Shown here: in pieces, positions 12,036 to 17,830 of the stretch
Numbering within the stretch: the stretch's first letter is position 1
How the letters are laid out: each line of letters begins with the position of its first letter
Assembly (NCBI GenBank): GCA_964016885.1
Contig: OZ024743.1
Span: 78,244,001 to 78,308,000, forward strand
DNA from: Eledone cirrhosa
Taxonomy: Eukaryota
Direction of reading: 5' to 3'
Length of the DNA stretch: 64,000 nt
Translations under genes and position numbers: made by a program
The notes under the pieces: model-generated
What the model saw: the letters and a program-made list of their open reading frames with translations, nothing else
Told to the model about the DNA's origin: nothing
The model's database searches: none

Positions 12036-12834
12036 TACTTTTCGGAGGCACAAAACCAAACTGCATCTCATCTACTTTGACCCTATAACGGCGGCGAAGA
12101 TTCGAAACCGAATCTGAGCTTCCCGCCTTTGGGACAAGCCGTGGTAAGTGGTTTACGCTCGACAGACCAACCCCTTGGGAGATTCTAAACACAGGTCAGA
12201 GGTGTTTACGCCTGGCAGAAAATAGGTCAGAGGATATATCCATCTTTCTGAGTTGTTTACGCCTAGAAAACCAACCCCTTGCGAGATACTAACCAAAGGT
12301 CAGAGGATATATCTATCCTTCTAACTTCAACCCGTATAAATACAAGTCTTCTTTACGCCCGACAGAAAAAGTGTTACCACGGATAAGAACAGACATTTCA
12401 CCTACTCTGACAAATCTCCCTTCACGAAAAACGTCTGTCACTATTTCTCACACGCCTGACTTAGTTATTACTACTGCTGCTAAATCAAGAAAGTATAGTA
12501 ATACGCGCACACGCATTCATAGTAAGTTCACACTATTTACATTCTTACACGCTCCATTTCTGTCATTCACATTGTATCTTTTGGATACAGTACAAATTAT
12601 ATTATAATCGTATTCTGTGATACTCGTATGTACGTGGCTCGAAGAGCCACCGAATTATTGTACGAATATTTCGTGTTATAGATTTTATTTAATATTTAAA
12701 TTGAATATTGTTATAATAAGATAAACATTGTAACAACACAATCCTGGTATTATTCTTTGCATTGAAACCATCATACCAACAATTCCATCTATCCACTATC
12801 CGTCAACCAGTTGTAACAAATATTGAGTTGTAAT

Positions 12835-15375
12835 GGCCATCGGACTGTTCTTCCAGATTTGGTGTGTCGGGGTTGTGCAGAATTTGTCGTGTTTGTGTCG
12901 GGCAAAGTTGTTGGTGAGTCTGCTGGAGAAACGGTGGGTACTGGTGGTAAATCCTGTTCTATTAACGGTGGAAGCGTTCCCCCATGCCGTTGGTGGCAGG
13001 GTGATACGTCGTTGTAGGGATGTGTTTACACCCGAGGAGACGAGTCAGCTCGGTAAATAGGTGCGAATCGAACTTATATGCTCTATCCGTAGTGATTGGC
13101 GCGGGTGTCCCGAAACGTGAAACCCAGTGAAAAACTAGTGTTTTTGGCGACAGTTTCCGCAGTAATATCCGTCAGGGGAAAAACTTCTGGCCAGCGAGAA
13201 AATCGGTCGACACGGGTGAGAAGATGAGTGTAGTTGTGAGAAGGAGGCAAAGGCCCAACGGTGTTAATATGCACATGTTGGAACCGTGCATCAGGTGTTG
13301 CGAAAGAACCGATCGGGGCTTTGATGTGTCGGTGAATTTTTGCCTTCTGGCACGCGATACTGTACGGTGCCATAAACCATTTCAGCCGGAGAATGTCCGA
13401 CTCGCTCCTTAACAGTGGAACGAATGCCAAGAAAAATGAGTGGGAGGTATTCGAACCAGTTAGTGGAGTCTGCGTAAGCCTTGATAGCTGCTTTTAGCTG
13501 GCGGTGGAAGCGTACCACCATGCCGTTAGCGGCAGGGTGATATCCATTCGCGGGTGTCCTTGTTGATGTTGGGCCACACAAAGCGAGCAACCATCAGTTT
13601 CTGCGTGGCGCGAACGCCAGGATGTGCCAGAGAATGCAGTGCCGAGAAAACGTCGCGTCGATGTTTTCGGGGCACGTATGGGCGCTCGTGGCCCGTGGAG
13701 ATGTCGCACCAAATATAACCCGAAGAAGAGGGCAGCGGGCATTCCTGCAATTTCAAGTATGATTTCCGGAGCTGCAGCAGTTCCTCGTCATTCTGTTGAT
13801 CCGCTGCAATCTTCTGGAGATCGATAGTGGCAGTGGTGTGGATTGCGTTAAGCTCCATGCGCGATAGGGCATCAGCTGCTGAGTTGGTGGCACCCTTAAT
13901 GTACCGACTATCAGTAGTGTACTGAGAAATGAAATCCAGATGTCGGACCTCTCTGGGTCAGTGTCGGTCGGGCTTGGCGTTGAACGCATACACTAGTGGT
14001 TTGTGGTCGGTGTATATGGAGAACACACGACCTTCTAGCATGTGTCGAAAATGCTTGACAGCAAGGTATGCTGCCAATAATTCACGACTGAATGTGCTGT
14101 ACTTAGTTTCGGCGGGTTTTAATCGCTTAGAGAAAAAAGATATAAGTCGCAAAATATCGTCAGAGAGTTGTTGAAGCACACCTCCAACTCAGAAATCGGA
14201 TGCATCAGTTAATAAACACATTGGGGCGTGAGATTTGGGGTACCTCAGCATTGTAGCCTCGGACAACATTTTCTTCAACTCAGCGAAAGCGGTACAGTCT
14301 TTTTCGCTGAGATTGAGATTGATGTTTACGTTTTTGGTTGTACGCTGCCGCAGCAAATCTGTGAGTGGTTGGGCTGTCTCTGCACAGTGGGGTATAAATC
14401 TCCTGTAGAAGTTTACCAGGCCAAGAAATTCTCGCAGTTTGCGGAGAGATGAAGGTTGTGGAAAATCAATGATGGATTTGACCTTCTCCTTAAGTGGACG
14501 AATGCCATATTCATCAATGATGTGTCCCAGAAAATGAAGGGACGCAACTCCGAACTCACATTTGCTGGGGTTGATAACAATTCCGTATTCACGCAAACGT
14601 GTGAATAGCAGGTCCAGGTGTCTCTCATGTTCTTCACCGGAGCCGCTGGCTACCAGTAAGTCGTCGATGTATCCGTATACAAAAGGTAGACCTCTGGTGA
14701 TTGTATCGATAAATCGCTGGAATGTATGCGCTGCATTACGCAAACCGAAAGGCATACGCAGAAATTCGAACATTCCAAAGGGTGTTGTGACGGCGGTCTT
14801 AGGAATATCTGCGGGCTCTACAGGTATCTGATTGTAAGCTCGCACAAGATCGATCTTCGAAAATATGCGAGTTCCGTGCAGCGAAATAGAGAAGTCCTGT
14901 AGATGAGACACTGGATAAGAGTCAGGCACGGTGCAGTTGTTTAGTGAACGGTAATCGCCACAGATTTGCCAGTCGTTCGACGACTTCTTGGGTACACAGT
15001 GTATGGGTGAGGACCAGTTGCTGCTGGACGGACGTATGATGCCGAGATCCAGCATGTGCTGAAATTCTTGTTTGACGGACTTCAGACGGTCTGGTGGTAG
15101 CCTTCTAGGTCATGCAGCGACAGGTGGGCCATGTGTTTTTATGTGGTGAGTGACGTCATGTTTTACAGGGCAAGCGTTGAATAGTGGTCGAGCTACGTCT
15201 GGGTATTTGTTGATTATATGGTTGTGCCGGGTTGTTGTTGCCGATCGTGAAATGACTTGACTGACTGTGGCAGTCCTAGCGGCTATGCCGCGCACAGCGA
15301 GACCAGTAGAGTTGTCAACGAGTCGTTGGTTTTTCAGGTCCACTAGCAGTGAGAAGTGCTGAAGAAAATCAGCTC
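12835..15375 (-). pseudogene. pol: Gypsy pol: RT, RNase H and scrambled integrase
   Basis: [49 protein letters not shown]; ends TKSGRTVRWP. Confidence 0.92.
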
Positions 15376-16528
15376 CTAAAATAGGGGTCGCAGCTTAGCC
15401 ACAACGAATACCCACTGGAAAGTGCGGCGTAGTCCCAAATTTAGTGTCAGGAAATGTTCTCCGTAGGTCGGAATATGTGAGTGATTCACCGCCTGGAGCC
15501 AGACTGGGGTTTCTTTCCTTTTTCCAGAAACGCAGGAAACCGGGATGATGCTGACCTCAGCACCGGTGTCGACCATGAAACGCGCGCCTGTGACGTGATC
15601 CTGAATGAAAAATAGGCGACTTTGATTATGAGGGCCAGAAACGTCCGTCGCATTCAGTTTCGTGCTGTGTCGTTTCCCTGATTCGACAAATGAACAGGGA
15701 TGGCTGCACTTTTGCGCTCGTCTCCCGAATTTTTGGTGGTACCAACACATTTCTGGTGAATCACGGGATGTGCTCGGACTTCTTGAGCGACCACCAAATC
15801 GGCGAGTTCGACTGTAGGACCGACGCGTGGCAGCGTTATCCAGTGACAAGGCCTGAATTTGTTGTGTCAAGGCCTGTATCTGTGTTGCTTGCTGTGCCAG
15901 TAACTGGTGTAGATCGGGCATCTCTGTGGCACTGGAGGGCTGAAGGAAAGGATTGGTGAAAGGCACGGCTGGCGTCTCATTGGCTAAAGTTGAGTGCGGA
16001 TGTGGTACCTCCATGATCTTATCTGCCAGCTCGGTGAGTTCTTCTGTGGTGGTGGACTCCCTGGTGGAGGCTAAGACAAATTGTGTGGCAGAAGGCAAAC
16101 GCTGGAGGAAGAGTTGCTTGAAAATTTCATCCGGGAGTTTATGTTATCCCAGGAGCTGCTTCATTCGCCGTAGGAGTTGCGTCGGCTTTTTATCTCCTAA
16201 TTCCTAACGATATGAGGAGCTGGTGCAAGCGCTACTACTGCGACTCCGACGTCCTCTTAATTAATGTTGTTTTAAATGTGTCATATGACACAGAGCCGGG
16301 TGGTGCTAAAATGAGGTCTCGAACCTCATTAATAATCTCCGGAGACATCGAACCAATAACATAGGTTAGACGAGATGCCTCGCTAACGATCCGGTTCGAT
16401 GCGAACTGCGCTTCGATGTGCGCGAATCACAGTGTTGGATCGTGTACCCAGAATGGTGGAATCCTTAATGTAAATTCCGCCCAGACTGCCATTTCTGCCG
16501 TAGATGATTCGTCGTGTGCTAGAGACAT
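15376..16528 (-). pseudogene. gag: Gypsy gag-protease (disrupted)
   Basis: IPPFWVHDP..FAHIEAQF; ELGDKKPTQLLRRM; CWYHQKFGRRAQKCSHPC; FMVDTGAEVS; several stops. Confidence 0.9.
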
Positions 16529-17830
16529 CGTTTGTAGTGGATAATCAGAAGGCTGTGTGTCTGTTTTACGGGGTCACCAGTTGTAACAAATATTGAGTTG
16601 CAACGGATAGTGGATAGATGGTTTCAATGCAAAGAATAATACCAGGATTGTGTTGTTACAATGTTTATTTTATTATAACAATATTCAATTTGAATATTAA
16701 ATAAAATCTATAACACGAAATATTCGTACAATAATTCGGTGGATCTTCGAGCCACGTACATACGAGTATCACAGAATACGATTATAATATAATTTGTACT
16801 GTATCCGAAAGATACAATGCGAATGACAGAAATGGTGCGTGTATGAATGTAAGCAGTGTGAACTTACTATGAATGCGTGTGTGCGTATTACTATACTTTC
16901 TTGATTTAGCAGCAGTAGTAATAACTAAGTCAGGCGTGTGAGAAATAGTGACAGACGTTTTTCGGAAGGGAGATTTGTCAGAGTAGGTGAAATGTCCGTT
17001 CTTGTCCGTGGTAACACTTTTTCTGTCGGGGCGTAAAGAAGACTTGTATTTATAAGGGTTGAAGTTAGCAGGATAGATATATCCTCTGACCTTTGGTTAG
17101 TATCTCCGAAGGGGTTGGTTTTCTAGGCGTAAACAACTCAGAAAGATTGCTATATCCTCTGACCTATTTTCTGCCAGGCGTAAACACCTCTGACCTGTGT
17201 TTAGAATCTCCCAAGGGGTTGGTCTGTCGAGCGTAAACCACTTACCACGGCTTGTCCCAGAGGCGGGAAGCTCAGATTCGGTTTCGAATCTTCACCGCTG
17301 TTATAACCCTTTCTCTAATCATTTGCGCTAATATTCTCTCTGCCACTTTCATAACCTGATCCATCAGCTTTATGCCCCTATAATTGCTCCTCTCTGGGGC
17401 ATCACCTTTAACTTTGTAGCAATTTATGAGAATAGTACTGCACCAGTCTTTGGGTATGACACCACCATATATAACTTGATTGATGATGCGTGCAACCAGT
17501 TTAATGTCTACCTCACCTGATGCCTTCAGCATCTCAGCAACTATCCCCGACGGTGCAGCGGCCTTACCATTCTTCATTTCTTTAATTGGGGAAGGAGTGA
17601 CCAGCAGTACGTTGTTTGGTATTATTACGAAAGGGTGTAGCAGAGAATCCTGCGTGAAGTAACAGCTCGGGTGGAAACTGCTTACCTCGAAGATTCATTC
17701 GCCATCGTTCTTGTTAATGCTCCGTTTAGTTGGTATTTGTTGGTCTACAGTTAGATTAATGGCGCCAAAGGGTTATTGTTTATTGGCAAGAAGTGGCAAC
17801 TGGGCTGGCTTGCCTCGCTTATATTATATA

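Follow-up and report, generated by a model that had tools for sequence, protein, structure and literature searches.

A single-copy Ty3/Gypsy unit with inverted long terminal repeats and two U3 ends in Eledone cirrhosa: a candidate product of misprimed plus-strand DNA

The DNA analysed here is a stretch of 64,000 nucleotides from Eledone cirrhosa (the window; C4:78244001-78308000 of a 3.0-Gb assembly, with positions counted from its first letter). At 12084-17305 it carries a 5,222-bp unit derived from a Ty3/Gypsy element, in which two long terminal repeats (LTRs) lie inverted with their U3 ends outward. The unit is a single dead copy and is best taken as a legible error of replication that has occurred more than once; it does not reveal a novel way of transposing. 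Its inverted arms (12084-12772 and 16617-17305) are 96.7% identical by BLAST and differ by 21 substitutions over 688 columns, plus indels. By alignment, the right arm belongs to a normal 5' LTR on the minus strand (16582-17305, TATAAC…GTTACA). The left arm, its sister, is a plus-strand LTR that runs on to about 12803 (12084-12803), starts its U3 outward, retains 17 bp gone from the right arm and stops in U5 17-24 nt before the LTR end. TATAAC, present at both outer ends, is the true U3 start of the family, where it adjoins the polypurine tract (PPT) in normal copies.

The unit is flanked on the plus strand by ACCC at 12080-12083 and at 17306-17309, an exact 4-bp target-site duplication (TSD) recognised from flank comparison and from an empty site. 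The host sequence is a minus-strand fragment of a long interspersed nuclear element (LINE), which we take to be RTE-like from a motif. Its upstream part (…MIRERV) lies at 17306-17694 and was placed by its reading frame and by another RTE-like copy, L058; its downstream part (KVDEMQFGFVP) lies at 12037-12083 and was placed by L058. When the two window flanks were searched separately, L058, an uninterrupted RTE-like copy, overlapped both by exactly 4 nt: its bases up to 3446 align with the right flank and those from 3443 on with the left, and it reads IRERVKLDEMQFGFVP. The target site was opened once, with a 4-bp stagger, and the ACCC duplication is not a chance agreement, because the empty site is present in L058. 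Among 140 sampled U3 flanks, ACCC occurred once, GGGT never, and GATT and AATC once each, while random facing flanks agreed as TSDs in 489 of 9730 pairs, mainly TA-rich ones.

Compared with natural full-length copies, the unit reads in element sense as 5' LTR, gag, pol to the integrase zinc finger, three integrase segments in the order C, B, A, a short patch, and a reversed LTR out to its U3 start. All parts between the two LTRs are on the minus strand. An AC spacer and an 11-nt tRNA-Trp primer-binding site (PBS), TGGTGACCCCG, occupy 16569-16581 (PBS 16569-16579) and were identified by motif (PMC2582038). The colinear leader-gag-pol body (13544-16568), delimited by alignment and domain matches, contains stops and frameshifts; frames and domain matches place in it a CX2HX9CX3C knuckle from 15747 (CWYHQKFGRRAQKCSHPC), a protease motif near 15579 and a reverse transcriptase (RT) frame at 14189-15109. 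The alignment then gives segment C (13362-13542, 181 nt), moved ahead of B and entered through joint J1 (0-1 nt), and segment B (12966-13363, ~398 nt), out of order after C and bounded by J2 (AC/ACT) and J3 (CG). Segment A (12835-12967, 133 nt) is the C-terminal part of the integrase (…TKSGRTVRWP), with ~310 nt of integrase missing before it and ~440 nt of 3' untranslated region (UTR) and PPT missing after it. The patch (12806-12836) consists of the last ~24 nt of U5, the AC spacer and at least the 4 first nt of the PBS, and 29 of its 31 nt match 16576-16606; J4 joins it to pol, and at J5 the strand flips. Microhomologies at the five joints are 0-1, 2-3, 2, 2 and 2 nt, that of J4 being CC only, as normal copies read GGCC|CACGCG. 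Segments C and B share a 41-nt duplication (13502-13542 and 12966-13006, 4 differences). No stable DNA hairpin was found at the flip joint (z 0.39), and alignment on normal copies revealed no PPT, 3' UTR or direct 3' LTR in the window copy. The extra material in the unit sums to one whole LTR and a few PBS bases.

The initial annotation had described inverted LTRs with two U3 ends, an ACCC duplication whose removal restores the host RTE frame, a normal 5' LTR followed by a PBS, and the lack of a PPT and of a direct 3' LTR; all of this holds, and the 3' UTR is gone too. Its U5+PBS patch at 12804-12830 has to be moved to 12806-12836, and its 9-nt microhomology between pol and patch shrinks to the 2 nt of CC, the 9 nt belonging to the patch. 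Three more joints, which scramble the integrase region, had escaped it.

Judged by its sequence marks, the parent family is an ordinary CsRn1-type Ty3/Gypsy family with direct LTRs and a PPT; the assignment follows the shared marks given in PMC2582038. The RT of the window copy has its best PDB matches in 4ol8 (E 2e-60) and the Ty3-G Gag-Pol entry 7q5b, and is closest to Ty3 among solved structures. Domain matches in pol are RVT_1, RT_RNaseH_2 (below cut-off) and Integrase_H2C2, in the order RT, RNase H (RH), integrase (IN). The Gag knuckle and the tRNA-Trp PBS of this clade are both present, the latter as an 18-nt version in sister copies. The family LTR begins with TATAAC and ends with GTTACA or GCTACA, thus with TA…CA and not TG…CA termini. 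All 29 other pol-end loci among the matches of the junction search (two overlap one element; one tail is shortened) have a direct 3' LTR, mostly past 410-490 nt of UTR and PPT. A non-PBS U5 end could be scored at 86 U3-start loci, of which 64 have a 4-nt TSD, 1 has a 5-nt TSD and 21 have none; left out of this count were 48 loci without a recognisable U5 end and 6 running into a PBS. The family is often inserted in TA-rich repeats, with TATA or CATA before 42 of 140 U3 starts (flanks L099-L238). At L010 and L030 the 3' LTR passes straight into PBS and leader, as in tandem copies with a common LTR.

The genome was searched for further copies of the junction and for other U3-U3 units. The pattern of an LTR followed by inverted U5/PBS gave one match, the window junction, and in a DNA search no second full-length junction appeared among the best 40 of 637 candidates scored, where the junction matched only itself. 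A census was based on 259 exact U3-start 25-mers listed across the genome; this pattern is estimated to catch about half of the U3 ends, so some units are missed. A clear PPT precedes 52 of the 259. Neighbouring U3 starts no more than 15 kb apart form 34 pairs, 32 of them direct, 2 facing inward (U3-out) and none back to back (U5-out); the pairs of U5 ends (first 100 of 143 exact U5 ends, main subfamily) are direct in 12 of 12 cases and never inverted. For 145 of the 191 unpaired U3 starts the downstream 6.5 kb was searched, and no further closed U3-U3 unit came to light; the remaining 46 are preceded by a PPT or were already covered. In total, about 200 host-flanked U3 ends yielded 2 certain and 1 probable U3-U3 events.

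The second facing pair, L071 (2372-2793; C3:254803371-254803792), is a 422-bp U3-U3 unit with the TSD GATT/GATT. Its U3 arms of about 74-81 nt show 2 differences in 81, and its interior is a ~290-nt LTR-like repeat of another Trp-primed family (the third such family), with a 10-nt microhomology, GTAAACAACT, at one of its two joints and about 3 nt at the second. In form L071 resembles a single-copy miniature inverted-repeat transposable element (MITE). L072 (2958-5462; C4:352.407-352.410 Mb) carries ~170 nt of U3 that turn, by way of CCATCTTT (8 nt), into antisense pol; past this flip there is one more jump and then an antisense 5' LTR, and the arms are 97.9% identical. On this sequence evidence L071 is an independent U3-U3 product and L072 a probable one; the recognition of the former as such a unit, and of the latter as a U3 fold-back into pol, is new. 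Other candidates were rejected: L195 consists of a solo LTR, which has a TSD to itself, and an unconnected fragment, L126/L127 represent a single insertion in inverted segmental duplication, L109, L222 and L237 are distant nested pieces (64-71%), and L238 and L106 are aberrant, with no closing U3 end or TSD. L106 (62-5929; C1:253.288-253.294 Mb) joins 93 nt of U3 to pol, followed by PPT, a partial 3' LTR and an inverted LTR piece, and no closing end lies within 10 kb.

These counts bear on the suggestion of the initial annotation that a multi-copy junction would reveal a propagating, terminal-inverted-repeat (TIR)-like mode. A sub-lineage propagating with inverted LTRs could account for more than one U3-U3 unit in the genome, but the joints are private to each unit, the window junction is matched once, L071 matched only itself at whole length (best 40 of 2165 candidates scored), the 29 other pol-end loci compared are direct, and the window unit has no PPT and a broken integrase; we consider such propagation very improbable. 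The same annotation held that a single-copy junction would mean a one-off event: the junction is indeed single, but other independent U3-U3 products with different joints exist. As for the convergent LTR promoters it proposed, the geometry stands, with TATAAA kept at position 252 in both window LTRs and both facing inward.

We favour, at a probability of roughly 60%, the reading that a PPT-primed plus strand was misprimed on a sense template and that integrase accepted the two U3 ends of the product. Plus-strand strong-stop DNA extended almost to full length (about 720 nt) would leave the minus strand with no transfer at the PBS, anneal to the sense template at the PBS/U5 border and copy ~30 nt backwards. 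The strand would then make short jumps in the integrase region (133, ~400 and ~180 nt) and run processively through pol, gag, PBS and LTR; second-strand fill-in would give a linear DNA with a U3 at each end, and integrase would join both U3 ends in concert, in one step. The same error with another landing site could explain L071, where 74 nt of U3 would have passed through the 10-nt microhomology into another Trp-primed LTR, and L072, where ~170 nt of U3 would have passed through the 8-nt microhomology into pol. The evidence consists of U3 ends that are precise on either side, a TSD that is exact, non-palindromic and as long as is usual in the family, a single template for the two arms, five clustered joints (0-3 nt) and independent recurrence. 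Plus-strand strong-stop DNA is an LTR plus a few PBS bases, and PBS bases are, to our knowledge, never present in an integrated 3' LTR; the PBS bases in the window patch therefore support a strong-stop origin. The aberrant strong-stop product accepted by integrase that the initial annotation envisaged thus remains the best reading, but its single fold-back is too simple, five joints being needed. The resulting unit is predicted to be a dead end, unable to copy itself, because it has no PPT, no direct 3' R and a scrambled integrase.

Traces of such intermediates occur elsewhere in the family. At 12 loci (L239-L250) the 11-nt PBS is extended to a longer copy of tRNA-Trp, running into a normal leader in 8 and into non-element DNA in 4; as read from these sequences, plus-strand DNA of the family does copy the tRNA. 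At L238 (L251 882-8761; C4:169.124-169.132 Mb) two LTRs that are 97.5% identical lie U5 to U5 at a distance of 2.36 kb, with no closing TSD; one carries an 18-nt tRNA copy, and the other is the 3' LTR of an inverted partner copy, which breaks off at the PBS and lacks a 5' LTR. The locus looks like an integrated pre-transfer intermediate. A further candidate, at C5:86456495-86458142, has a PPT-primed LTR and an opposite-strand U5 end 1.6 kb downstream, possibly a full element with a head-to-head extra LTR.

Two molecules could instead have been involved, one U3 end being offered to integrase by a complete cDNA and the other by a surplus strong-stop LTR in double-stranded form; repair would have joined their U5 ends head to head. 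The ~740-bp palindrome would then have collapsed, with scrambling of the nearby pol and loss of the 3' UTR, the PPT and the greater part of the genuine 3' LTR, whose final 24 nt would survive as the patch along with a leftover tRNA copy. This account places the patch where, and in the orientation in which, the end of a 3' LTR belongs, yields an exact TSD as well, and fits the window unit nearly as well as mispriming does. The U5-to-U5 LTRs of L238, one with its 18-nt tRNA copy, and the C5:86.456-86.458 Mb candidate speak for it too, but L238 has its 2.36-kb spacing and lacks a closing TSD. In L071 and L072 the flip falls within U3 and has 8-10 nt of microhomology, which indicates priming and not end ligation, so the model does not fit them, and the 41-nt duplication requires synthesis beyond a deletion. 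We regard a two-molecule origin as possible but unlikely.

The age of the arms was examined in order to place the event relative to insertion. In a tree of 32 LTRs (loci with hits <600 nt omitted) the window arms are sisters at 100/99, with tip depths of 0.016 and 0.0144. Over 15 pol copies, private changes of the window pol at codon positions 1+2 amount to 24/1399 = 1.72%, against a half arm divergence of 1.53%, and 51 of 86 differences from the column majority fall at third codon positions. The long stem would then reflect evolution of a master lineage, with arms identical at about the time of insertion, because pol decay matches half the arm divergence and the differences pile up at third positions. 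As far as these sequences go, the dating excludes a late rearrangement only. At C4:77.976 Mb, 284 kb away, lies a segmental duplicate with the same insertion site; it differs by 1.45% from the right arm and by 3.05% from the left, and it has the right arm's derived changes, the left arm keeping ancestral bases. It was rejected as a witness of the left arm, which it lost in a 28-kb deletion, its seemingly inverted flank being another repeat inserted in U5. The segmental duplication itself pairs C4:77.965-78.005 Mb with the window plus 20 kb upstream (97-98% identical, about 265-284 kb apart). L050/L054 are a further paralogous LTR pair.

An early repair event after insertion would be the other way to obtain such a unit: a normal element would have suffered an early 3' break, and microhomology-mediated template switching would have copied its 5' LTR in reverse before rejoining the left flank, the TSD being kept. 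Repair by template switching typically leaves a cluster of short jumps and then one long run. The return point would have been the short terminal repeat of the LTR (TATAAC versus TGTAAC), where the terminal bases match at 5 of 6 positions, which makes an accurate return feasible. Unintegrated ends are indeed extended by host polymerases with viral DNA of either orientation (PMC5041404), but the half-site model described there usually gives host duplications far above a normal TSD. Against repair also stand the agreement of pol decay with arm half-divergence, which disfavours a late rearrangement, the U3-type A at position 2 right after the TSD in both the window unit and L071, and the non-palindromic ACCC and GATT, which would allow no annealing for an exact return. 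Repair after insertion thus appears quite unlikely, and an origin of the window unit at or before integration, by whatever route, is likely.

An assembly artefact made of fold-back reads is scarcely credible. No independent read spans the joints: in 5 sequencing runs, none of which contains this copy, no read piece bridging them was found, no RNA run being among the matches listed and the best DNA runs sharing 0.10-0.16 of words, a result that counts as a gap in the case for the unit but weighs neither way. The 21 substitutions and indels between the arms, the ancestral bases of the left arm, the right arm's derived changes in the paralogue 284 kb away and the 4 differences within the duplicated 41 nt all oppose an artefact, and a read chimera would not stop at an exact TSD.

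Several further points weigh against the preferred reading of a misprimed plus strand. The window strand-flip joint, with 2 nt and a 1-2 nt indel, is weaker than those of L071 and L072, and five joints with 0-3 nt of overlap suit host end-joining equally. The contrast in polarity between U3 and U5 amounts to 2 versus 0 only. L071 has its TSD without empty-site proof, and L072 has lost its right U3 tip (the last ~21 nt), hence there is no TSD to score. The dating is coarse, with controls giving ratios of 0.5-5.9, and 'before' and 'just after' integration are inseparable by it; gene conversion between the arms would blur it further.

Other features lie near the unit. At 9966-12036, 47 bp from the left arm and in the same RTE-like fragment, is a multi-copy, 2.07-kb non-autonomous LTR element with 372-bp LTRs (99.5% identical), TG…TA ends, a long tRNA-Trp-like PBS and the TSD TACT. 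An inverted duplication of ~1.25 kb (20037-21279 and 24294-25561, 92% identical) is found in the segmental paralogue too, and short imperfect palindromes occur at 31808-32044 and 63559-63713. The window contains no tRNA gene.

With respect to replication, the units indicate that a Gypsy integrase uses two U3 ends in vivo, here with TA rather than CA ends, and such U3-U3 scars would record where plus-strand DNA goes astray. LTR finders rely on direct repeats, and because of this need U3-U3 units are likely missed or filed as MITEs. The units also offer a countable route from LTRs to inverted termini, a step called unclear for the origin of Ginger elements (PMC2836005). Speculatively, U3-U3 integration might be a regular by-product of Ty3/Gypsy elements (about 1% of insertions), able to capture co-packaged families, and might be the missing step to Ginger-type TIR transposons and to inverted-repeat loci producing double-stranded RNA; we put this forward as a doubtful generalisation. 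If it were true, mispriming plus-strand DNA would build TSD-flanked units with identical inverted integrase-recognition ends, and L071 would already be such a unit, MITE-like and 422 bp long.

The literature searched, to which most subscription journals did not belong, yielded no account of U3-U3 integrants in a genome. The CsRn1 clade (CsRn1, PwRn1, AgCR) is marked by the CX2HX9CX3C Gag knuckle, a tRNA-Trp PBS, a 4-bp TSD and the order protease-RT-RH-IN (PMC2582038). The window copy shares the knuckle, the PBS, the TSD and the RT-RH-IN order, but departs from the clade in its inverted LTRs, the absence of PPT and 3' UTR and the scrambled integrase, and its family in an LTR that starts with TA, not TG. 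The direct LTRs and PPT of a canonical LTR retrotransposon are absent from the window copy and present in its family. Template-switch complex insertions have near-identical outer LTRs and the TSD of one integrase event, made up 2 of 400 insertions (Sabot and Schulman 2007, PMC1950507), and have been attributed to capture from co-packaged RNA. They resemble the window unit as rare, TSD-flanked products of aberrant reverse transcription with near-identical outer LTRs, but are head-to-tail with direct LTRs, the text of PMC1950507 making no mention of 'invert', whereas in the window the strand flips and both ends are U3.

The half-site proviruses of human immunodeficiency virus type 1 and avian sarcoma/leukosis virus likewise have a cut-back viral end joined to viral DNA in either orientation through short homologies and serial templates; they have one integrase-joined end and host duplications usually of hundreds of bases, whereas both ends of the window unit are precise, with a 4-bp TSD (PMC5041404). 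Autointegration inversion circles, formed by cDNA from virus-like particles, also carry inverted segments between LTRs, but consume both LTR ends at internal sites (PMC7197481). With 0 of 5 joints at a precise LTR end, the window unit was rejected as an autointegration product.

DIRS-1 has inverted terminal repeats, a short internal copy of terminal sequence near its 3' end, a tyrosine recombinase and no TSD. The window unit shares the inverted termini and the short internal terminal copy near the 3' end, but here the architecture is a private accident and not the family form. It was rejected as a DIRS element: no recombinase match was found in any of 6 frames, the whole unit maps on a normal Gypsy copy, and a TSD is present.

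As a Ginger DNA transposon the window unit was also rejected, since RT is present, the junction is single and the ends are TA, not TG. It further differs from Ginger in keeping gag, in a TSD other than CCGG/CCGT, in its broken integrase, in inverted arms of ~720 bp against TIRs of 40-270 bp (PMC2836005), and in drawing both arms from one element's U3, with no second insertion. With Ginger1 and Ginger2, whose TIRs have been proposed to come from two opposed LTRs by a chain of events called unclear, it shares inverted termini, a 4-bp TSD and a Gypsy-type integrase (PMC2836005).

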